A program made the position numbers and the translations under genes. Below are positions 3,368 through 34,268 of a stretch of 64,000 nt of DNA, in pieces (the first letter of the stretch is position 1; every line of letters starts with the position of its first letter). The notes under the pieces are model-generated. The model worked only from the letters and a program-made list of their open reading frames with translations. It was not told where the DNA came from and ran no database searches. This stretch comes from Mustelus asterias (taxonomy: Eukaryota), in NCBI RefSeq assembly GCF_964213995.1, contig NC_135812.1:98704001-98768000 (forward strand). Reading direction: 5' to 3'.

Positions 3368-4278
3368 TGTCACGATGTTTAAACGATGTTCCCTAAAGAA
3401 GCCCATGAATAATATATTTGTGTGTGTGAAGGCGTACATTTTTTTACGGCGGCAGAACCTCTTCGCTTAAAAAGAAAAGGCCAGTATATTTCAATCTATT
3501 ACTTTGGAAGTTACTTAACAAAAGATAATGTTACTAACACACACGTAAATACACACACGCCCACACACACACACTGTGCAGAGTCTGTACATTCTCCCCG
3601 TGTCTGCATGGATTTCCTCCGGATCCTCCAGTTTCCTCCCACAATTTGAAAGATGTGCAGGTTAGGTGAATTGGCATGCTAAATTCTCCCTCAGTGTACC
3701 CAAACAGGCGCCAGAGTGTGGTGACGAGGGGATTTTCACAGTAACTTCATTGCAGTGTTAATGTAAGCCTACTTGCGACAATAATGAATAATCTTAAAAC
3801 TTAAACATACACATGGACACACGCAAGGACACACACACACACACACATACACGCATACAGACACACATGAAATAGATTTCCTGTGCCTCTCCTGTTAGCT
3901 AACCCTGTATCATGAGTTTCCACAATTCTTGTTAGCCAATGTAGTTGATCAGATACCTTCTCAAAAGTGATCCTAAGAGGATTCTACATACCCCTCTTCA
4001 AACCGGGGAACAAGTTTGGAGAATCCTAGGGCCTTAAAATCAATTTCTGAGTTTTGGGGATTTGGAATGTAACTAGGCAGTGTTGGGAGGGTATTGGTTA
4101 CAGAATGGTGTCTTTTAAATAAGTCTTCTGTTGCCTTCAATTGGTTAACTGCAAGTCTTTATGAACAAATAGAACTATTTATACGTGTACAGTAAAGGGT
4201 GCAGCCTAGGATCTAGCCTTAGGTCTTTATGTCTCTGCTCAACATCACACTTACCCCTAGGCCATGTGACTTCTTACA
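3368..4278 (-). mobile_element. Putative LTR (contains a nested SINE at ~3572-3800 and CA-rich tracts)
   Basis: TGT...ACA termini, TATAAATA on the minus strand at ~4176-4183, close to a minus-strand Gypsy pol relic; no clear TSD. Confidence 0.35.
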
Positions 4279-4353
4279 TTGCTTCTTGGCCTTTTGGGTA
4301 AGACCAAGCGTGAGGTCAGGTGTAATACCCTGTTCTTGTCAGCTTGGATCTGG
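4278..4353 (+). pseudogene. U2 snRNA-derived 5' fragment
   Basis: ATTGCTTCTTGGCCTTTTGGGTAAGACCAAGCGT matches U2 nt 1-34 (recalled sequence) at 29/34, then a 12-nt degenerate duplication and weaker similarity to U2 nt ~35-63; no Sm site or 3' domain. Confidence 0.75.
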
Positions 4354-5480
4354 AATGGTCTACCCCGCAGCCCGTGGATGAAGCATCTGCCGCTATGGTA
4401 GTGAGCAGGGTTGGCTCGTAGTGAGCCAGAGTGTCAGCGGAGAGCAGCATTGCCTCGATGTGATTAATTGCTTGCTCTTGCTACATGTCGCAGCACCACG
4501 CAATCTCTTTCTTGGAAATGTGTCCCAAGAGTTCTGTGAGTTGTGCCAAATTAGGTAAGGATTATGCTTGTTGAATCACTATCCATAGAGGATGCTGGAG
4601 GTTGAGGACTGAGGCAGGAGTGGGGAACTCACTGATCTCCTTGGTTTTCTGTGGGTTCACTGTGATCCTTTGTGGCTGATGATGTGGCCCAGGAAACATT
4701 GGACATTTTGTAAGATTTGCATTTGTCACTCAGCATCAGCCCTGCTTCCTGCAGTCACTCCAAGACTGCTGTGAGCCTTTTATCTTGCTTTTCCACTGTC
4801 GCGCCCTGAGCCAAGATATCATTCATGTGGAAAATGACCCCCTGAAGACCCTGCAAAATGTCTGGCATCATGCATAGGAATATCTCTGGTGCTGACTTGA
4901 GCTCTCTGGCTACGGCCTTGTTAAAATGTGTCAGATCAGCACAAATGTGGAGGGCCCGTTCGGTTTTGGGTCTGGGACCATCACGGAGAACCATTCTTGT
5001 GATTGGGGACATGACCCCCATGTTCACCATATTTGCGAGGCAGCTGCTGTACTCTCTCTACGAGGTGGGTGGGGGAAATTCCATGGAGTGAAAAGGCACA
5101 CTGGGTCTAGCATCCTCTCTCAGTGTGATCCAGGACACGTTTTTCACACAGACCAGCTCCATAAAGAGCTTCAGGAACTCACTTTTATATTTGGAGCCAG
5201 TCTCTTGACCTCTTCAATTTTTGCGGGAAGTTCAAGTCGACACAGGCTTTGCGGCTTCACAGTGAGCAGTACTGGTTGTGGATGATAAACAGGGTCACCT
5301 GGTTTGTTCTGTCCTTATACCTGTGTGTCGCCTGCAGGGTGTCCTTGACTGGAAGTCTCAAGCCTTCTGCCGCGTACAGGGGTGTTGTGCATGGCATCAG
5401 CCGTCGGGTTGCCAGCCATGGTTCTTTGTCCAAGACAATGGTTATGCCAGCACCTGATTTGTTCAATGGTTGTTGGCAAA
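4354..5480 (-). mobile_element. Degenerate Ty3/Gypsy pol fragment (protease region-RT-RNase H)
   Basis: Translated motifs ICADLTHFNKAVARE, SAPEIF..ILQGLQGVIFHMNDIL (YxDD position), FLGHII, LAHYEPTLLTTIAADASSTG; frameshifts, stops and internal deletion. Confidence 0.85.
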
Positions 5481-5499
5481 GATACCTGTGTTCCAGAGT

Positions 5500-6416
5500 G
5501 AGAAACCCCGAAGTGGGGTTGTTCGCTGATGATTGCACAATGCTCAGTACTATTCATGACCCCTCAGATACTGAAGCAGTCCATGTTCAAATGCAACAAG
5601 ATCTGGACAATATCCAAGCTTAGGCTGACAAGTGGCAAGTAACATTTGCGCCACACAAATGCCAGGCAATGATCATCACTGATAAGAGACACTCTAACCA
5701 CCACCCCTTGACATTCAATGGTGTTACCATTACTGAATGTCCCACTGTCAACATCCTTGGGGTTACCATTGACCAGAAACTCAACTGGACGCACCGCATA
5801 AACACAGTGGCTACCAGAGTAGGTCAGAGGCTAGGAATACTGCAGTAACTCACCTCCTGACTCCCCAAAGCCTGTCCACTATCTACAAGGCACAAGTCAG
5901 GAGTGTAATGGAATACTTCCCACTTGCCTGGATGAGTGCAGTTCCAACAACACTTAAGAGGTTTGACGCCATCCAGGACAAAGCAGCCCACTTGATTGGC
6001 ACTACATCCACAAACATTCACTCCCTCCACCACCGATGCTCAGTTGCAGCAGTGTGTACCATCTGCAAGATGCAGAACAGTACTTCACCAAGGATCCTTA
6101 GACAGCACCTTCCAAACCCACGACCACTTCCATCTAGAAGGACAAGGACAGCAGATACATGGGAAGACCACCACCTGCAAGTTCCCCTCCAAGCCACTCA
6201 CCATTCTGACTTGGAAATATATTGCCGTTCCTTCGCAGTCGCTGGGTCAAAATCCTGGAATTCCCTCCCTAACAGCATTGTGGGCCGATCCACAACACAT
6301 GGATTCCAGCGATTCAAAAGAAGGCAGCTCACCACCACCTTCTCAAGGGCAACTAGGGATGGGCAATAAATGCTGGCCAGTCAGCGACACCCATATCCCA
6401 TCAATGAATATTAAAA
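5500..6416 (+). mobile_element. LINE 3' portion (CR1/L2-group RT C-terminus and 3'UTR)
   Basis: LFADDCT..LDNIQA*ADKWQVTFAPHKCQ, MEYFPLAW..FDAIQDKAAHLIG; tail AGGGCAACTAGGGATGGGCAATAAATGCTGGCC. Related fragments at ~16420-16920(-), 21400-21530(-), 33635-33990(+), 37480-37625(+), 47860-48075(-). Confidence 0.85.
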
Positions 6417-7810
6417 ATCCCTGATACCCCTGAACCCTATCCCCCATTCCCATTTACTCTTCTCCCACTCCAACCTGCAATCTGTTCCAGAGTTGCGATC
6501 TTCCCCCATCCTCCGACAATCTCTCCCTACCTCGGTTCTGTTCCCCAGCTCTCCAAGGGAGACCTTCTTTCCACCTGTCAGCCAGCCTACCTCTCGGACT
6601 GGCTGGCCAGGAACTGCAGAAAAACATTATCACCCCGAGGTCCTGTCCTTAAATTGGGGAAAGGATTCACGTCACCCACCTTTCCAGGGTTCCAGGTTGC
6701 TACAAGCCACCATGCCCCCTCTCACCCCTCCGCATTGTACTCAAGTCCTTCCCCTAGGTGTCTGTCTAATGAAGGCAAAGCAAAATAATCACAAAGTCAA
6801 ATCAGCCTCAGCTCTTGGTATTCACCGACATCTAGCAGTCATCTAAACCGAAACTCTCTCTTGAATATTGGAGAAGAGACGATAGCTACAAGTTTTAACA
6901 TTGCTCTTACCAGTGCACTGTGCTGGGCTGCTTGAACTTTGCAACTCTGTGCAGGAGCAAACTGTTTGGCAGGATTCGTGTAACTCCCGATTGGCCAATC
7001 AAAGTCAGGTGCTGTGTTAACAACCTGTTAAGTTTAAACTAACAGCTGCTGCTACCCTGTGCAGACAACTTAGAGAGAGGTCATGCTCCAGCAAACTTTC
7101 GCTGCACTGACACCAAATCATTGAATCCATTTAATGTTTGCTGAAGCAAAACATGGGGCACGTTGCAGAAGCGGGTCAGCCAGGCTTCTGTCTCGTCAGC
7201 CTGGACATTTCCCAGTGCAGCTCTTTTGCTCTGAATCCTCTCTAGTTTGTGAGAAATCTTCTGGGCTGCACAAGGCATTACCAAACCAAAATACTTGATG
7301 TGGCTACCAACAAATGCACTTCTGTCTCGGGGGTTGAGGCCACTCCTGATCAGTATTGGAAAACACATCTGAATGAGAATAAAGCCATATTTCAAAAGCC
7401 CACTGACTCACATCTGAAATCCAGGCACTCGTCGTGGGCCTCATTCAGCAAAAGCTATTTGGACACAATGCAATCAAAATTAGGATGAATCTCACCCATA
7501 CTTTGGATGTGTAATGGATGTAATGGGTGCCAAATTCTGGCCATGAGATCCTGCATAAAATCTGCACTAAATCACCATGTTGTCCTTCAATAATTTTTCG
7601 GAAACCCTTTGTAGTCTCTGGAAATCAGTGATGGATCAATTAGAATATTCAGGGTCAGGTCATTGCCTATATCACAAATTGTTTGAAAAGCTACGTGGAG
7701 CAAACATATGGCATACAAACTGCAACTATTTCCTTCAGTTCTAAAGTGGCCTAAACTAGGACCGTAAATGGTTCACTGGAGGCATAGCTAAAGCTACAAA
7801 AGGTATATAT

Positions 7811-8175
7811 TTTTATTCATTCATGAGACGTGTGTGTTGCTGGCTGGGCAAGCATTTGTTGCCCATTCCTTATTGCCCTTGAACTGAGAAGCTTGCTAGA
7901 CCAATTAAGAGGGCAGTTAAGAGTCAACCACATTGCTGTTGATCTGGAGTCTCGTGTAGGCCAGACCAGGTAAAGACAGCAGATTTCCTTCCCTAAAGGA
8001 CATTAGTGAACCAATGCATTGACAATCGACAATGGTTTCATGTTCAACATTAGACTTTTAATTACAAAGTTTTATTGAATTCAAATTTCACCATATGCCA
8101 TGGTGGGATTTGAACCTGCGTCCCCAGAGCATTACTCTAATTCAATGGCGATACCACTGCGCCACCGCCTCTCCC
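7811..8175 (-). mobile_element. Second tRNA-derived SINE family (tail shared with the LINE at 5500-6416)
   Basis: B-box GGTTCAAATCC, core GTCCTTTAGGGAAGGAAATCTGC; other copies at 24410-24750(+), 50625-50850(-), 58716-59105(+), 59875-60210(-). Confidence 0.75.
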
Positions 8176-8589
8176 AAAACCCCACTGCTTCAAAAGGGTA
8201 CCTTTGCCTTTATAGCCCATAGCACAGAGTCACCAACCTTAAGACTGCTCTCTTGGATCATCTGAGCTTCTCTCAATCCCACTTTGCTTCAAGTCTACTC
8301 CCTAAAACTCTTTCTTTACTTGAGCCTCTTTATTTGGTTCCTTTACTGAACAGGATCTGTTTCTGACCTCTCCTCTTGTCCCTTAGCCAGAACTGTGTCA
8401 TGATAATGGAGTAAAAAAACACCAATTACGCTCAGAAATATTGGACTTTAAATAAGAGCTGTGGTTTTAAAAATGGACATACAAATCAAAGAGGGTGGAG
8501 GATGTAAATTCAGTCACTGGCTGAATAGCTGATGAATGATACTGAGAGAGAAGCAATGGGAAATGTAGGAGGGAATGAACGAATTGAGT

Positions 8590-9205
8590 CTTCTGAGACC
8601 ATGTAGGACTTCAACAAAAACGGCTTTATTCAACATGCATGAGGGAGAGCAGAACTCGCGGCTGTAACTACAGCTTGCTTCCGAGCTACTCTGCTAATCA
8701 TCGGTTCTTACATACTCTTATACTTTTTTGTGTTACAAAGTGCTACACTTCGATTAGATCATCAGATTGTTACTTTGGATTGGTCACAGTTCTGTTTTTG
8801 ATTACATTATGCAGATCCATTGCCTTAGTGCTTCAGCTTTAATCGCTTACTGGACATCTCCTGTCTAACTGTTTACAATATCAAAGCCTTGTATTTGTCA
8901 AACTGATTTCGATGGGGTGTTAATTGTCCCATCTCCTGGATATTTGATTAAGTTTTCAGAGGCATAATGGTTCCTCTAGATCTTTTGGAGCCTTGATAAT
9001 TGATATCAATTCTCATATGGTTGTTGTAACCTCGGAGAAATACCATCTGGGATGTGACTGTCTTAGTACCGTCTGAGATATAATTATTTGTATTTTGTTC
9101 TGTCTGCCTGCAGGGAGTGTGGATGCTACAGTACTGTCTGTTTAACCCTTTCTATACACTCTTCTCCTGCTGCAGCCCACACTCCCTGGGTTTTGCCCTA
9201 CTACA
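8590..9205 (-). mobile_element. Putative LTR with tRNA-Leu-like primer binding site
   Basis: TGTAG...CTACA termini (8602-9205), AATAAA ~25 nt from the 3' end on the minus strand, immediately followed by TGGTCTCAGAAG (11/12 to the tRNA-Leu PBS TGGTGTCAGAAG). Confidence 0.45.
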
Positions 9206-12362: not shown

Positions 12363-12576
12363 ATGACGTGGAGATGCCAGTTGGACTAGGGTGGGCACAG
12401 TAAGAAGTCTCACAACACCAGGTTAAAGTCCAAGGGGTTTATTTGGAATCACCAGCTTTCGGAGCGCTGCTCTTTCATCAGGTGAATGACTGACCTGATG
12501 AAGGAGCAGCGCTCGGAAAGCTGATGATTCCAAATAAACCTACTGGACTTTAACCTGGTGTTGTGAGACTTCTTAC
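12363..12576. mobile_element. Palindromic Penelope-like terminus (family A) with hammerhead-like motifs, inserted in a SINE tail
   Basis: Inverted repeat 12400-12576 (~85-bp arms); CTGATGA-stem-GAAAGCT on both strands. Confidence 0.75.
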
Positions 12577-12699
12577 AGTGGTAATGTAAGCTTACATGTG
12601 ACACTAATAGATAAACTTACATAGATTTTAAACATTTGGTTGCACACATCTGTTGGTAACACTCAGTATTTCAGATTGAGGGATAAGTCTGGGTGAAGT

Positions 12700-14024: not shown

Positions 14025-15170
14025 AATGCTAGCCTTGGAGAAGATCCAGAGGAGATTCACAAGAATTATCCTGGGAATGAAAAGCTTGACATATGAGTGT
14101 CTGAGGACGCTGGGTCTGTACTCAATGGAGGATGAGTGGGGGTGGGGAGGAATCTCATTTATACATCATGTCTGTGTGGAGTTTGCACATTCTCCTCGTG
14201 TCTGCGTAGGTTTCCTCCGGGTGCTCTGGTTTCCTTCCACAGTCCAAAGATGTGTATGTTAGGTTGATTGTCTTACTGTGTTTACCCCAGTCCAACGCCG
14301 GCATCTCCACATCATGACATTAGGTTGATTGGCCATGCTAAAAATTGCCCTTAGTGACCTGAGATGCGTAGGTTAGAGGGATTAGTGGGTAAAATATGTA
14401 GGGATATGGGGGTAGGGCCTGGGTGGGTTTGTGGTTGGTGCAGACTCGATGGGCTGAATGGCCTCTTTCTGTACTGTAGGGTTTCTATACTTTTTTTACA
14501 GAATAATGAAAGGCCTGGATAGAGTAGACATGAGGCGGCACAGTGGCACAGCGGTTAGCACTGCTGCATCATGGACCCAGAGACTCGGGTTCAATTCCGG
14601 CCTCGGGTCACTGTCTATGTGGAGTTTGCACATTCTCCCCATGTCTGCATTGGTTTCCTCCGGGTACTCTGGTTTCCTCCCACAGTCCAAAGAGTTTCAA
14701 AGGTTAGCTTGATTGGCCATACTAAATTGACCCTAGTATCAGGGGATTGGGAGGGGAAATATGTGGGGTTACAGGGTTAGGGCCTGCGTGGGATTGTGGT
14801 TGGTGCAGACTCGATGGGCCGAACGGCCTCCTTCTACACTCGAGATTCAATGATTTTAAGATGTTTCTGTTAATAGGATAGACTAGTACCTGAGGGCACA
14901 GCCTCAGAGTAAAAGGACAACACTTTAGAACTGAGATGAGGAAGAGTTTCTTTCGCTGGAAGGTGGTGAATCTGTGGAATTCATCGCCACAGAAAGTTGT
15001 GGAGGCCAGGCATTTAAGATAGAGATAGATGGGTTCTTGATTGGTAAAGGGATCAAGGGTTATGGGGGGAAAGCAGGAGAATGGGAGTTGAGAAACTTAT
15101 CAGCCATGATTGAATGGCAAAGCAGACTTTACGGTTTGAATGGCCTAATTCTGCTCCAACATCTTATGGT
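14025..15170 (+). mobile_element. CR1 LINE 3' fragment split by two HE1-like SINEs (~14168-14488, ~14533-14855)
   Basis: ALEKIQRRFTRIILGMK..., RIMKGLDRVD, and the CR1 tail resume after each SINE. Confidence 0.8.
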
Positions 15171-28177: not shown

Positions 28178-29122
28178 GTAAGTAGAACTCATGAGGAGAT
28201 TGTGCAGTAGTGGAGCCAAATGAGTACATCTTGTTCAATTTACATGCTGCCTGTCCAATATCATAATCATATCTTTTACAACTCAATTTCATTCACTTAA
28301 TTTTGGCTTGGGAGATGCTCTTTATAAAATATACTCCAAAACTATTTAAGAATTTCCACTGAATTCCTGACTTTGCTCATACTTTTAAGCAGAGGTCAAG
28401 CCCTTTCCCACGGGAAGTGTTTCAAGGATGTGGGGGAGAGATTTAGTGGTTTTATCACTCGAGGGACCGTAAACAGATGAGCGGCAGTGTTGAAGTGGGA
28501 GGGAAGGGCAGTAACAAGCATCTTATTTCAAACAAATTGGTGAAATGGTACTGCCCTGAAGGAGACCATTCGGCCCATTGTACCTGTGCCAGCTCTTGGA
28601 ATGACCTTCCATTTCCCTGCTCTTTTCCGGTTTGTTCCTTTTTGAATATAGATTCAATTAACTTTTGAAAGTTCATATTTCACCATCTTCGCAGGCAATC
28701 ATCATAACTTGCATCATAAAAGCAATCTCCGGTATTTTGCCAATACCTTTAAATCTGTGTCCTCTGCTGATTACCTACTCTCCTGCCTACTCTATCCAAA
28801 TAGTTCCCAGTTAAAACTCTTTTCACCAAGGAGAACAATTCCACCTGGACATGGTTCTCCCCACAATCGATTTTGATCATCCCTGGTATGATTCTGGTAA
28901 ATGTGTCCCACTGCCTGTCCAGGCGCACTGGAAAACTGACTCCCGGATTCTATCATTCCTGACTGCAGTGAGAGGAAGGAGGCAGAATGCTTGCTGTGTG
29001 GCAGGAAAGTTTGTCCTCAGCCTGGCCAGTCTGATGTGGTGCAACAGCAATTCGTCATGGAGTCAAAATGTATTCATTGCTTTTGGAATCTGATTCTGAG
29101 CAACTCTTGTTTGTCTCTCTAG

Positions 29123-29242
29123 GCTTTTGGCAACATTCTGAATCTGGTTCCCCTGGCCGAGAGCGTGGTGAAACTGAGTGCTGTGTGCACAGAGTGCTAC
29201 GGGGAGGCTGCGTATACCAAGAGACTGGGAGCTGAGAAAGAG
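29123..29242 (+). CDS. TK1: Thymidine kinase 1, exon 6 (first Zn CxxC)
   Basis: ctctag|[40 protein letters not shown]|gtttg, 120 nt. Confidence 0.97.
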
Positions 29243-29582
29243 GTTTGTTTTTTTTTGTCCTTCCTTTTTTTTTAGTTTCTTTGTTTTCTTCCCCTCCTGA
29301 AGAAACCATTCCCCAGATTCTGGGCACCATCCAGAATCTTGCCAATTGTCCACTCAATGTATGTGACCCTAGGTGGAGGGAGAAGGTGCCATCATTAAGT
29401 ATGATCGAGGCACTATCAAAAGTCACATGCACATCAGTGGAGTTTTCTCTATCTCAGCTTGGGGCTCAGGCCAATTGTGATCCCTAAGCTGGTACCTCAG
29501 CTGAGACCTTGACACAGGCGTGGGACCTACCTGACCTTTTATGGCTCAACTTCAGATAGACTTACTGAGCCATTACAGGACA

Positions 29583-29785
29583 TGATGTGGAGATGCTGGC
29601 GTTGGACTGGGGTAGGCACAGTAAGTAGTCTCACAACACCAGGTTAAAGTCCAACAGGTTTATTTGGTAGCACAAACTTCCGGAGTGCTGCCCCTTCATC
29701 AGGTGACTCACCTGATGAAGGGGCAACGCTCCGAAAGCTCGTGCTACCAAATAAACCTGTTGGACTTTAACCTGGTGTTGTGAGA
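29583..29785. mobile_element. Palindromic Penelope-like terminus (family A) with 10-11-bp TSD
   Basis: 78-bp arms 29629-29706 and 29708-29785; ATTACAGGACA at 29572-29582 and 29785-29795. Confidence 0.8.
29709..29743 (+). ncRNA. Minimal type I hammerhead ribozyme motif
   Basis: CAC-CUGAUGA-A-GGGGC-AAC-GCUCC-GAAA-GC-UC-GUG: stem I CAC/GUG, intact core, 5-bp stem II, palindromic AGCU stem III, cleavage triplet CUC. Confidence 0.6.
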
Positions 29786-30593
29786 TTACAGGACAATAAG
29801 AGATTTACTTGACAATTCATTCAGTCATGTGAGAGTTCAATGAATTGTAAATGTGACTGACCCATTGCAAATAATGGACAGAGTGAGCGACTAGTCAAGC
29901 CACAAATACCCTGCCCTGCATTAGTCTAAATGCAGGCAGGTCTGACTATGCAAGTGAAAGCTATTGGGATAGAATGGTGCTCAGCTAATTCTGGGTGAAG
30001 AGTTGGCTTCTTTAAATCATTGTGCCAACAACTTATATAGTGTCTTTAATAACAAAAATATTTTGAGGTGTTTTTACAGAGGAAAAATAACTGGACGTAG
30101 AAGCTAAGACTGCGATCAAAATTAGAGGGACTGAGTTGGTGGTTGGTGAGTGGGCGGGTGTAATTGGAGTGTTGGAAAAAGTTTCCAAAAATAGGAGGAA
30201 GGGAGGCCAACAATGGGATTTTGTCCCGTTGACACACACGTCAGAGAAATCATTGGTCCCGTTAGCTTCCTAAGGACTGAGTGTGAAGCATTGTTTCTGG
30301 GTCCTGGGAGCAGGAGACCTTGACAGAATCTGGTGTGGATCTTTTCAGCAACAGATAAAGAAAGGGAATATTCGCTGTCAGTGTTCTGTGGTCAAACTGC
30401 TCTCAATGGGAACGAGGATGAAGATGAAAAGGATGAATTGTGTTTGTTCAGCACCTTTCACAACCTCCAGCTGACTAGGAGCATTTTATAGTCAAAGAAG
30501 TACTTTTGCAATGAGGTCTCTGTTGTAATTTAGGAAATGAGGCAGCCAGTTTGTGCACAGCCAGCTCCCACAAACAGCAATGGGACAATGACC

Positions 30594-30903
30594 ATAGAAT
30601 CCTTCAGTGCAGAAGGAGGCCATTCGGCCCATCAAGTTTGCACCAACCACAATCTCATCTAGCCCCTATCCCCGTAACCCCATGCATTTACCCTAGCTAA
30701 TCCCCCGACACTAAGGGGCAATTTAGCATGGCCAATCCACCTACCCCGCATATCTTTGGAGTGTGGGAGGAAACTGGAGCGCCTGGGAGAAACCCACACA
30801 GACACGGGAAGAATGTGCAAACTCCACACAGACGGTGACCCTAGCCGGGAATTGAACCCGGGTCCCTGGCGCTGCGAGGCAGCAGTGCTAACCACAGTGC
30901 CAC
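30594..30903 (-). mobile_element. HE1-like SINE nested in a DeuSINE relic
   Basis: Full head, core and tail. Confidence 0.85.
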
Positions 30904-32042
30904 ATGTCATCCTCTCTTTTTTACTGATGTTGGTTGAGGGATAAATATCGGCCACGAAAGCAGAGAGAACCTCCTGCTTTTCTTTGAAATAGCGCCTGGG
31001 ATCTTTTCCATCCACCTAAGAGAGCTGTTACAGACAGAGAGAAACTCAACTTCTTTACCCTGTCCCCGTCTGCCCGTAAACAGGGGTGGTTTGGGACTAT
31101 ATCTAAAGTGGGCTGTGGCGTGCTTTCCCCTAACCCTCGGTCAGTGTGGTCTAATTTAATAATAACTTGTATTATGATCAACTGGTTAGTTCACTCACAT
31201 TCAAACCCAGTGAGGAGCAGTGTTTGCAACCACGCACATGCACACAAACATATATATGTTCAGTAAGGGGGCAGTAGAAAAGAGGAAGATTTGCAACTAT
31301 GGGCAACACAAATAAATAAATATTAGTTCATGTGATTTCCAGAGTCTGAGAAGTCAGAATCCAGAGGGCATTCCTTTGTGGCAGAGTTTAGTCCAGATGG
31401 GTTTCTGGTTGGAGACAACAACACGAGTGCTTGATATGACTGACGATGCAGCACAGTGGAGTTTGCATTTAGATCGCTCAGCCAGCGATAACCAGAGACT
31501 TTTAAAATCCAGGAGTTGAGAGGTGGTGGCCGGCTGCTTGGTCAGCTAGGAGCTGCTGGAGTTCTTCCTGTGTGATGTTAAATCAGTGGGTCATGGTGGG
31601 CCTGGGTAAGATGCTCTTTCAGAGAGTGTGCAGACTTGACTTGCCATGGGCAGCCTCCTACGCTGTTGGCATTCAATGGCTCAATAATTTCTGCTCCAAG
31701 ATTCTTTTATTTCATCAGAATCCTTTCTTCCCTTGAAGAGATAGCAAGGGGCAACAAACATTGGTGGGAGTTATTTATAGGCCACCAAGTTGGAGTGGCG
31801 ATGTTGGGCGTGGTATAAATCAGGAAGTTAGAGCTTCATGTAAGGAGAGTAATACAGTAATAATGGAGTGCTTCAGTTTACATATAGACTGGGTAAACAC
31901 TAAAGCTGTGGAGGATGAATTCCTAGACTGTGTACAAGATGGTTTTCCGGAGAAGTACTTTGAGGAACCGATTGGGGATCGGGCTATTTTAGATTTAGTA
32001 TTAAGAAATGAGAAAGTGCTAATTGATAACCTTGCTATAAAG

Positions 32043-33473
32043 CAGGTGTCTCCAAACTTTTCAGTACGAGGGCCACATCGTATATTTTACACATTTTCGG
32101 GGGCCAAAGAAAAAAATTAGTTTTATAAATGAACTGGCGATGATTAAGCCTGTGAGATCAAATGAAATTCACTGTTGAAACAACAGGTTTCAGAACACAA
32201 GACATATCCACGTATTTTCCGCACAATGCTTGTTGATGGATAATGCAATGCAGAAACATGGGCTTTGAGAATCCACCAACCTCACAAGCTTTTGTGATTT
32301 GTCCAACCAAACCTTTCTTCACCCCAGACATGTTCTTTCCTCCATCAATTGTCACGCATTGCAGTTTATTCCACTCCAGGTTATATTTTTGCAATTCTTT
32401 GAAGATGTCTTCTCCAATTACTGTGCTGTGCATGCTACGCACTGATGCTAATTCTTGTGTCACGTTAAATTCACTGTCGACGCCACGGATGAATACTAGG
32501 AGTTGTGATGTGCCACACACATCAGTCGATTCATCAAGTGCGAGAGAATACAACTGAAAATTTCTTGCTTTGTCTGCAATTTGATTAAATATATTGCTTC
32601 CTATATCCTCAATTCTACGAGCAACAGTATTTGGCGCAAGACTGATGATTTTGAACAGATTAGCTTTTTCTGGCCATAACTCTTCCACTGCTTCCATTAT
32701 ACACTCTTTGATGAGATCTCCATCGGTGAATGGCTTTCCTCTTTTAGCCAACACATAAGCTAGTTTGTAACTGGCCCTGGTTAAAGCTTCATTTTCAGTT
32801 ATCTTCTGTGTAAAAAAAGCTTGTTGGGAAAGCAACCTGCGTTGCATTGATTCAAATTTTTCCGAACGCTGTGTTCCTGTGAATTGGGAATAACTTGGTT
32901 CATATTTGGTCTCATAGTGCCGACGTACATTGTACTCCTTCAAACCTGCAACAGTTTCGTTGCATATGACACACTAGGCTTTATCACCTGCTTGTACAAA
33001 GAAGTACTTTATACCCCATTCTTCATTAAACAGGCGGCACTCACTGTCCACTTTTCTTTTTTCCTTCCATAACTGAATTGGTCTGAATTGCCGCCATCAT
33101 TGTCATTGTTCTCGCTCAGTTCAGACAGATGGAGCTTACGAAAGCAGCTTTCATTTAGTCAATGCAGGGCAGCAATTGGATAACAGATGTCTCAATTGCT
33201 GATTCGTTTAATGAACTGTCAGTCACAGGACGGCAGCTCTGATTGGACAATAGGCCGGTAAAGAGGGCGGGGGTTCCCATGGGTCCATCGGACACCGCGC
33301 GGAGCAGCAGCAAATGTCCGGCCTGTGGCTTCCGTCCCCGCGTCCGGATCCTGAGTCAGCGGCGGGGTGCCGGACGCGGGAGTGTCTTCAGCAGCGGGAA
33401 TCCCGTCCCGTCCCGCCCCACTGGCTGCGGGCCAGATGTTAGCCCACTGCGGGCCGTAGTTTGGAGATCCCTG
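32043..33473 (-). mobile_element. hAT DNA transposon (Charlie/SPIN-like), internally deleted, inserted in a CR1 endonuclease relic
   Basis: TIRs CAGGTGTCTCCAAACT / CAGGGATCTCCAAACT (14/16); perfect 8-bp TSD CTATAAAG at 32035-32042 and 33474-33481. Confidence 0.95.
32130..33070 (-). pseudogene. Truncated hAT transposase (SPIN/GTF2IRD2-like)
   Basis: KRKVDSECRLFNEEW..C..C..KEYNVRRHYETK (BED-like finger), YSLALDESTD, TIDGGKNM, HCIIHQQALC; N-terminal frameshift and stop, TGA in NFI*SHRLNHRQF, C-terminal half absent. Confidence 0.9.
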
Positions 33474-34067
33474 CTATAAAGGATCCATTAGGAAATAGTG
33501 ACTGTAATATGCTAGTTTTACATTAAATTTGAAAGTGAATCTGAACATAGGAAATGATGACGATATGAGGGGCAAGTTGGCTATGATGGATTTGGAAAAT
33601 ATATTGATGATCTCATTGAAATTTACATTCACTCTCGCACCACCCACACACTGGCTGCAGTGCACCCGCTACAAGATGCACTGCAGAAACTCAGCAAGGC
33701 TCCTCAGGCAGCACCTTTCAAACCTGTAACTGCTACCATCTAGAAGGATAAGGGCAGCAGACACATGGGAATACCAGTATCTGGAAGTTGTCCTCCAAGC
33801 CACTCACCATCCTGGTTAGGAAATATATCGCTGTTCCAAAAACCTGGAACTCCCTTCCCAACAGCACTGTGGGGTGTACCTACACCACATGGACTGCAGT
33901 GGATGGCGAAGGCAGCTCATCATCACCTTCTCGAGGGCAATTGGGGATGGGAAAAAAGTGCTAATCTAGCCAGTCACACTTGTGCCATCTTAAAGGAAAA
34001 TAAGCAAAATTTCCAAAGTTCTCTCCCTTGTTTGATTTAGTTCAGTGACCCTGTTTTGTCCCAACAG

Positions 34068-34268
34068 GTCGAAGTGATTGGTGGAACAGACATGTACCAA
34101 GCGAACTGCAGGTCCTGTTACTTTGCGAACGAAAGCCGGATGGATATGAAGAGTGATAAGGAGAACAGTGGACAAGAAGGAACTCACCAACATATAGCTT
34201 CAAAACAACCAGTCTGGCCCCAACAAGGCAAATCACAAAGAAAACTCTTTGAAAGTCTGCAGGTCTAA
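34068..34268 (+). CDS. TK1: Thymidine kinase 1, exon 7 (lasso, second CxxC, KEN box, stop)
   Basis: caacag|VEVIGGTDMYQANCRSCYF..SDKENS..QRKLFESLQV*; the seven exons sum to 717 nt = 238 aa plus stop. Confidence 0.96.
   Translation, partial: VEVIGGTDMYQANCRSCYFANESRMDMKSDKENSGQEGTHQHIASKQPVWPQQGKSQRKLFESLQV

Follow-up and report, generated by a model that had tools for sequence, protein, structure and literature searches.

An intron of TK1 in Mustelus asterias, within a 64-kb stretch of genomic DNA (hereafter, the window), contains an old, mirror-image remnant of a very common Penelope-like element (PLE), an insertion of a known kind. With considerable confidence, we interpret this 202-bp insertion as two copies of the PLE 5′ untranslated region (UTR) joined head to head, probably in a single event with reverse transcription primed from both cut DNA strands, and the hammerhead that it carries as likely inert in the TK1 pre-mRNA, where it is predicted to be locked in a hairpin. 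The locus itself is ordinary; the ends of the copies, when compared at the level of the entire family, provide a testable clue to the Penelope mechanism, with possible bearing on the start of the element RNA, the formation of inverted copies and the cutting by minimal hammerheads in cells.

Anatomy and age of the TK1 insertion

The insertion occupies 202 bp between two identical copies of an 11-bp target-site duplication, ATTACAGGACA, located at 29572–29582 and 29785–29795 (plus strand, 11/11 identical), in agreement with the first-pass annotation, which described an insertion of about 200 bp with a 10–11-bp duplication. The two inverted arms, 29625–29706 and 29708–29789, are 93% complementary, so that the near-perfect palindrome originally described is borne out, but with arms of 82 nt each rather than 78. 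There are six mismatches between the arms, five of these within the hammerhead and one in the overlap with the duplication.

The long, tailed arm (29583–29706, minus strand) corresponds to the 5′ UTR, or pLTR end, of the element and extends from 2 nt past the putative transcription start site to the A in the ATG of the ORF; the last two bases of the left duplication copy match the TG of this ATG on the minus strand, a case of microhomology. This arm includes a one-sided tail of about 38 nt (29583–29620, minus strand), which lies between the two families of 3′ ends described below. The short, tail-less arm (29706–29784, plus strand) starts exactly at the A of the putative transcription start and terminates at +75/76, some 10 nt before the typical range of +83 to +89. 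At the head-to-head junction (29705–29706, plus strand), A29706 is preceded by G29705, which is common to the left arm (again, microhomology). Around the junction, at 29698–29709, the element antisense strand resembles a splice donor (CAG/GTGAGT), and the TK1-sense junction reads as a weaker one (CAG/GTGACT).

On the TK1 sense strand, the short arm carries a minimal type I hammerhead that is intact (29709–29743), with all core nucleotides present and the predicted cut after C29740, precisely as initially noted. In this motif, stem I consists of 3 bp, with CAC (29709–29711) pairing with GUG (29741–29743); the core comprises CUGAUGA (29712–29718), an unpaired A (29719) and GAAA (29733–29736); stem II is GGGGC/GCUCC (5 bp); and the AGCU palindrome (29736–29739) is followed by the cut base, C29740. 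The copy in the long arm (29671–29705, minus strand) is damaged: the replacement of GAAA by GGAA that was recognized previously is indeed present, but is not the sole lesion, given that this copy also contains AGUU for AGCU and a C-A mismatch in stem II.

The host gene was identified as TK1 through the exon at 29123–29242 (plus strand; Pfam TK, E = 4.4e-11, and exon motifs). Motifs of five further TK1 coding exons are found upstream of this exon, which is thus the sixth, and the next exon begins at 34068, so that the earlier placement of the insertion in intron 6 (29243–34067) fits the count of coding exons. The insertion is old: the TK1 arms differ at 5 of 76 positions, and flanking contigs from other samples, in which the flanks are diverged by 1.4–7.6%, run into the arms, at both ends in X3 and X13 and at the right end in X11. 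These contigs break at the repeat, and the core lies outside their span.

An abundant family and its parent element

The family to which the insertion belongs is extremely abundant. The genome contains 58,313 exact matches to a 40-mer from the arm and 13,006 to the pattern of the intact hammerhead core, and at least 1,779 head-to-head junctions are located within 30 nt of stem I. The parent element encodes a 535-aa frame that combines a reverse transcriptase (RT) with a GIY-YIG endonuclease. In the parent frames, the RVT_1 domain scores 33.6 bits, above the cut-off of 29.6, and the GIY-YIG domain 20–21 bits (E = 4e-4 to 6e-4), just under the cut-off of 22.6; between the RT and the endonuclease, these frames carry a Neptune-type cysteine linker, C-x4-C-xx-C. 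In the available text of PMC8557442, a CX2-5CxxC motif in this position is given as a trait of Neptune and Nematis. A search of PDB yielded no relative at E 0.01.

A full-length copy (L216) contains, in this order, a pLTR, a hammerhead, the ATG, the ORF and a second pLTR, with an inverted partial copy in front. The ATG of this copy lies 122 nt after the start of stem I, and from this layout, the long TK1 arm is the untranslated leader of the element. Arm lengths vary continuously, the longest being full-length copies with the ORF. Altogether, the family shows the features of an EN+ PLE, namely, an ORF with RT followed by GIY-YIG, pLTRs with an inverted copy, a one-sided tail and a short duplication. 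The Penelope-like origin proposed in the first-pass annotation is therefore substantiated, the genome-wide search for a parent having produced an RT and GIY-YIG ORF linked to the hammerhead family.

In copies at L216:2147, L161 and L162, the tailed 3′ ends stop at the ORF start codon, which has a strong Kozak-like context, so that an RT start site and the translation start fall at the same position. Long RT frames that are found beside a Penelope copy, at L139:2081–2863 and 7608–8570, belong to a different, LINE-type element.

Conservation of the hammerhead motif

The CUGANGA … GAAA … UH pattern was examined in the 239 arms that span the motif, and the core pattern is intact in 170 of these. 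An unpaired A precedes stem II in all 170 intact-core arms; the G10.1-C11.1 pair is G-C in 149 and G-U in 15; AGCU, in which the A and the U are prescribed by the search pattern, is present in 164; and the cut base, H17, is G in only 5. The first three pairs of stem I are paired in 488 of 510 cells, compared to 28–206 in slid controls, the first pair being C-G in 91 and U-A in 59 of the 170 arms, and the third pair of stem II is A-U in 125, G-U in 35 and G-C in 8; these covariation counts represent a few subfamily changes that were inherited and counted many times. Given that stem I covaries across subfamilies, the motif is real, and its original classification as a minimal type I hammerhead stands. 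The comparison with Rfam Hammerhead_1 that was suggested at the same time produced no match: a covariance search of 28500–31000 detected no hammerhead family at E up to 5, and the best Rfam matches at the insertion were hairpin (miRNA) models, below gathering scores. Because the intact core is the norm of the family, its preservation in the TK1 copy is no sign of selection and nothing special to TK1, contrary to the impression left by the initial description.

Formation of head-to-head copies

To characterize the ends of the copies, we mapped 372 arms from 1,556,423 bases. Most of these arms were retrieved from the surroundings of exact pattern matches, and the references for the arm ends were 60 natural long copies. 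The 3′ ends are bimodal, falling either at +82 to +93 or at +120 to +122. The 372 arms include 127 head-to-head pairs, among which 109 combine a tailed arm with a tail-less one, 3 have two tails and 1 has neither. Both arms belong to the same subfamily in 68 of the 72 classifiable pairs. Duplications of 10–14 nt flank 65 of 121 pairs, against at most 0.15 per length in shuffles; in 43 of the 121, there is no duplication near both ends.

We infer that a pair is likely made in one insertion event, in which the RT is primed from both cut DNA strands. Under this scenario, the element protein would nick the two target strands about 11–14 bp apart; one of the resulting ends would prime at the start codon and the other about 35–40 nt upstream; both cDNAs would be copied from uncut RNA of the same kind and would run back toward its capped 5′ end, with the cap copied into one of them as an additional C; and the cDNA 3′ ends would anneal via 2 bases and then be filled in. 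Such a scheme has precedents in the portions of the literature available to us: an inverted copy with a one-sided tail is the published layout of EN+ PLEs (PMC8557442, PMC3846280), and in vitro, reverse transcription of an Anolis element has been described to start at two sites and to be primed on both strands (PMC11167929).

Alternatively, a single cDNA could have snapped back and copied itself, with no second priming involved. Self-priming of this type has been proposed for head-to-head palindromes (PMC3846280, in the part available), and it would fit the observation that paired arms are closer to each other than random arms (median 9% versus 19%), as well as one recurrent junction in another subfamily that is compatible with a snap-back through a 3-nt loop. 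However, in TK1, the strand ending with the extra base is part of the tail-less arm, which could not have served as the template for the tail; the short arms end within the narrow +82 to +93 window, as expected of a fixed second start site; and the start-site end can be carried by either arm (16 tailed, 11 tail-less). We therefore regard the fold-back of a single cDNA as unlikely.

Still less probable is that the TK1 stub was copied from a distinct palindromic element that is non-autonomous, similar to a retrozyme or a SINE, and spreads as a unit. The exact TK1 junction does recur, in 8 of 50 loci among the matches listed (hand count), and retrozymes have been described as PLE derivatives (bioRxiv 10.64898/2026.07.22.740005). 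In the other 42 of these loci among the matches listed, however, the junction spacers vary freely; arm lengths are continuous up to the full-length copies; and the two arms of a pair match each other but differ from those of other pairs. Moreover, non-LTR retrozymes are defined by tandem repeats (bioRxiv 10.64898/2026.07.22.740005), whereas the TK1 stub is a head-to-head pair without a direct repeat of the unit.

Putative transcription start and cap

The 5′ ends of the copies bear on the template of the proposed two-strand-primed event. Among the 372 arms, 38 start either at an initiator A, which lies three bases before stem I, or at the base preceding this A. The rate of 5′ ends at these positions is 8.4% per nt, compared to about 0.5% upstream, and reaches 20% per nt in the TK1 subfamily. 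In this subfamily, the A is part of an initiator-like run, and a TATA-like run is located about 32 nt upstream, a distance to be read against the usual spacing between a TATA box and an initiator. The arms that start at the A have a G in front of it in 14 of 16 cases, compared to 29 of 99 for other ends at which C is likewise the native base, although the partner arm, with its G-rich end, may account for part of this G excess. Genome-wide, hand counts give a G before the A in 70 of 100 cases and, at the next position inward, in 38 of 100 (Fisher p = 9e-6). The 474 kb that were unselected by pattern contain only 31 arms, 5 of them at the start site.

Judging from these sequences, the 5′ ends likely mark the start of a capped RNA, and the extra G would be the copied cap; in the available text of PMC3287187, the untemplated G at the ends of full-length L1 and SVA copies is attributed to cap copying as well. 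The TK1 right arm begins with a G followed by the A (29705–29706), so that its template was likely a capped RNA that had not been cut by the ribozyme. The recurrence of the TK1 junction in several of the loci considered above may result from the 2-base overlap that the extra base provides.

An apparent pile-up of 5′ ends at +30 to +33 turned out to be largely an artefact of comparing several subfamilies to one reference. In the subfamily with a U-A pair in stem I, there is no TATA-like run and little pile-up at the initiator A; accordingly, transcription of this subfamily may start elsewhere.

Predicted fate of the hammerhead in the TK1 pre-mRNA

The insertion is predicted to fold into an exceptionally stable hairpin (z = -17.65; 0 of 200 shuffles are equally stable). 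The predicted energy of this hairpin is -148.7 kcal/mol versus -101.3 kcal/mol when stems I and II are forced and the core is left free, that is, a penalty of 47 kcal/mol for ribozyme formation in a folding prediction that ignores proteins. In the folds of the growing transcript, the core bases, including CUGAUGA, are fully paired in every prefix that holds them. The isolated motif shows no preferred hammerhead fold by energy alone. Being a 4-nt palindrome, stem III requires a second copy, with a duplex energy of -2.5 kcal/mol. A search of the 64-kb window found no sense-strand dimer partner within the TK1 gene; besides this motif, the window contains a single copy on the sense strand, a damaged one located upstream of the TK1 coding exons.

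Given the energy penalty, the absence of a sense-strand dimer partner in the gene and the old age of the insertion, the TK1 hammerhead is likely inert: according to the folding models, it would stay zipped in the hairpin and would not cut the TK1 RNA. The left arm would be transcribed first and would pair with the right arm as the latter emerges, so that the ribozyme would be left unfolded and the intron would be spliced out normally. The first-pass annotation suggested both that the ribozyme is masked by the antisense arm and that cleavage competes with hairpin formation. The models support the former, with a highly stable hairpin that would capture the core during transcription, and speak against the latter, given how strongly the hairpin is predicted to be favored. 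Action of ADAR or Dicer on such a long hairpin is plausible. Most likely, the insertion, as one of many such intronic hairpins, has no consequence for TK1.

It is highly improbable that the hammerhead is a working, regulated ribozyme that cuts the TK1 intron when the hairpin is opened or a protein refolds the RNA: all core bases on the sense strand are intact whereas the antisense copy is damaged, the insertion is common to other samples, and a related hammerhead is protein-assisted in vitro (PMC11167929, in part), but against this stand the predicted penalty together with the co-transcriptional capture of the core, the predicted failure of the lone motif to fold as a hammerhead, the requirement of the palindromic stem III for a second copy when the gene holds no other in the sense orientation, and the intact core in 170 of 239 family arms anyway.

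A possible cleavage footprint in the family

Within one base of the predicted cut, we find the starts of 17 of the 372 arms, or 1.7% per nt versus 0.6–0.7% on either side (Poisson p = 7e-4 in this sample). The signal is more pronounced in the subfamily with a 4-bp stem I, where 72 of the 100 matches listed out of 2,321 are truncated at the cut or one base before it, compared to 24 of the 100 listed out of 741 for the same truncation three bases upstream. This translates to about 1,670 versus 180 copies where even truncation predicts a ratio of 1.4 to 1; about 26 of the 72 cut-site ends represent one junction that snap-back could favor, and without these, the excess is about fourfold, for a 4–7-fold step at the predicted cleavage site. 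A downstream control, which is contaminated by another subfamily, shows no clear drop past the cut and, at face value, no excess at the cut over the next base. A seeming contrast between an uncut TK1 subfamily and the cut others (2 versus 15 events) was dismissed when 4 more TK1-type arms at the cut proved to have been misassigned.

The distribution of copy ends is suggestive of a cleavage footprint that would concern the family, not TK1. We consider the chances roughly even that the short copies, including the one in TK1, are mostly run-off products of a capped, uncut 125-nt 5′ UTR and that a second class begins at the cut. If true, the minimal hammerhead would be a switch that, in living cells, strips the Penelope mRNA of its cap and first 35 nt, and the copy ends would give two exact coordinates, the capped start 3 nt before stem I and the cut 35 nt later. 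The literature that we surveyed, with few subscription papers and without supplements, contains no report of a cap or cut footprint in Penelope elements, nor of such a footprint in sharks. As far as their available text goes, PMC4209133 gives no in vivo evidence of cleavage by minimal hammerheads (min-HHRs) and PMC11167929 no RNA reads ending at the cut.

Relationships with known PLEs and hammerheads

The following comparisons refer to the portions of the cited papers that were available. The motif closely resembles the metazoan PLE min-HHRs described by Cervera and De la Pena (2014, PMC4209133) in having a type I core, an unpaired base between 9 and 10.1, the G10.1-C11.1 pair, palindromic 15.2–16.2 and no real helix III, and likewise in its occurrence in pLTRs, in thousands of solo copies and close opposite-strand pairs. 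For such minimal hammerheads, no cleavage of the monomer and weak cleavage of the dimer have been reported (PMC4209133). The stems are shorter here, with 3 bp in stem I and 5 bp in stem II versus 4–5 and 7–8 in the Schistosoma examples, and the 13,006 exact cores exceed the 4,000–9,000 given for coelacanth and Xenopus (PMC4209133). Sharks are not named in the main text of that paper, as far as available, and its alignment supplement may hold cartilaginous-fish motifs.

The parent element is similar to EN+ PLEs of the Neptune and Nematis groups (PMC8557442, PMC3846280) with respect to the RT, the C-terminal GIY-YIG, the CX4CxxC linker and the pLTRs; other shared features are an inverted, 5′-truncated copy, a one-sided tail of 30–40 bp, a duplication of 8–14 bp, and a TATA-like run with a TCACT-like initiator in the pLTR. 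Unlike those elements, the TK1 copy lacks any ORF, and both of its arms stop at or beside the putative start site.

Poseidon PAc from Anolis (Frangieh et al. 2024, PMC11167929) also has two RT start sites that bracket the tail, and both target strands are cut and extended with uncut RNA as the template, as would be the case here. A Penelope hammerhead that cleaved only with its own protein was reported in the same study (PMC11167929). The ORF of PAc begins within the hammerhead and contains the RT start sites (PMC11167929). In contrast, in the family analyzed here, the hammerhead and both 3′ ends are located upstream of, or at, the ATG.

The amniote hammerheads HH9 and HH10 are single-copy, conserved, canonical hammerheads with tertiary contacts. 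The TK1 motif shares with these (RECK; PMC6155905) the location on the sense strand of a host intron, but unlike them, it is a minimal, high-copy transposon remnant that is paired to its own antisense.

Related copies in the window

The hammerhead pattern has 4 matches in the window, against 0.00 expected. Another palindrome (12363–12580, unstranded), which belongs to this family and has the same layout, precedes the first TK1 coding exon by a few hundred bases and lies likely in the promoter or 5′ region of the gene, and both of its hammerheads are damaged. TK1 intron 2 contains a tail-only fragment of the Penelope-like family (14272–14316, plus strand) that is flanked by a repeated short run. 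At 30837–30901 on the minus strand, there is a tRNA-like SINE head with a weak match to the mascRNA model, which we take to be an ordinary repeat.
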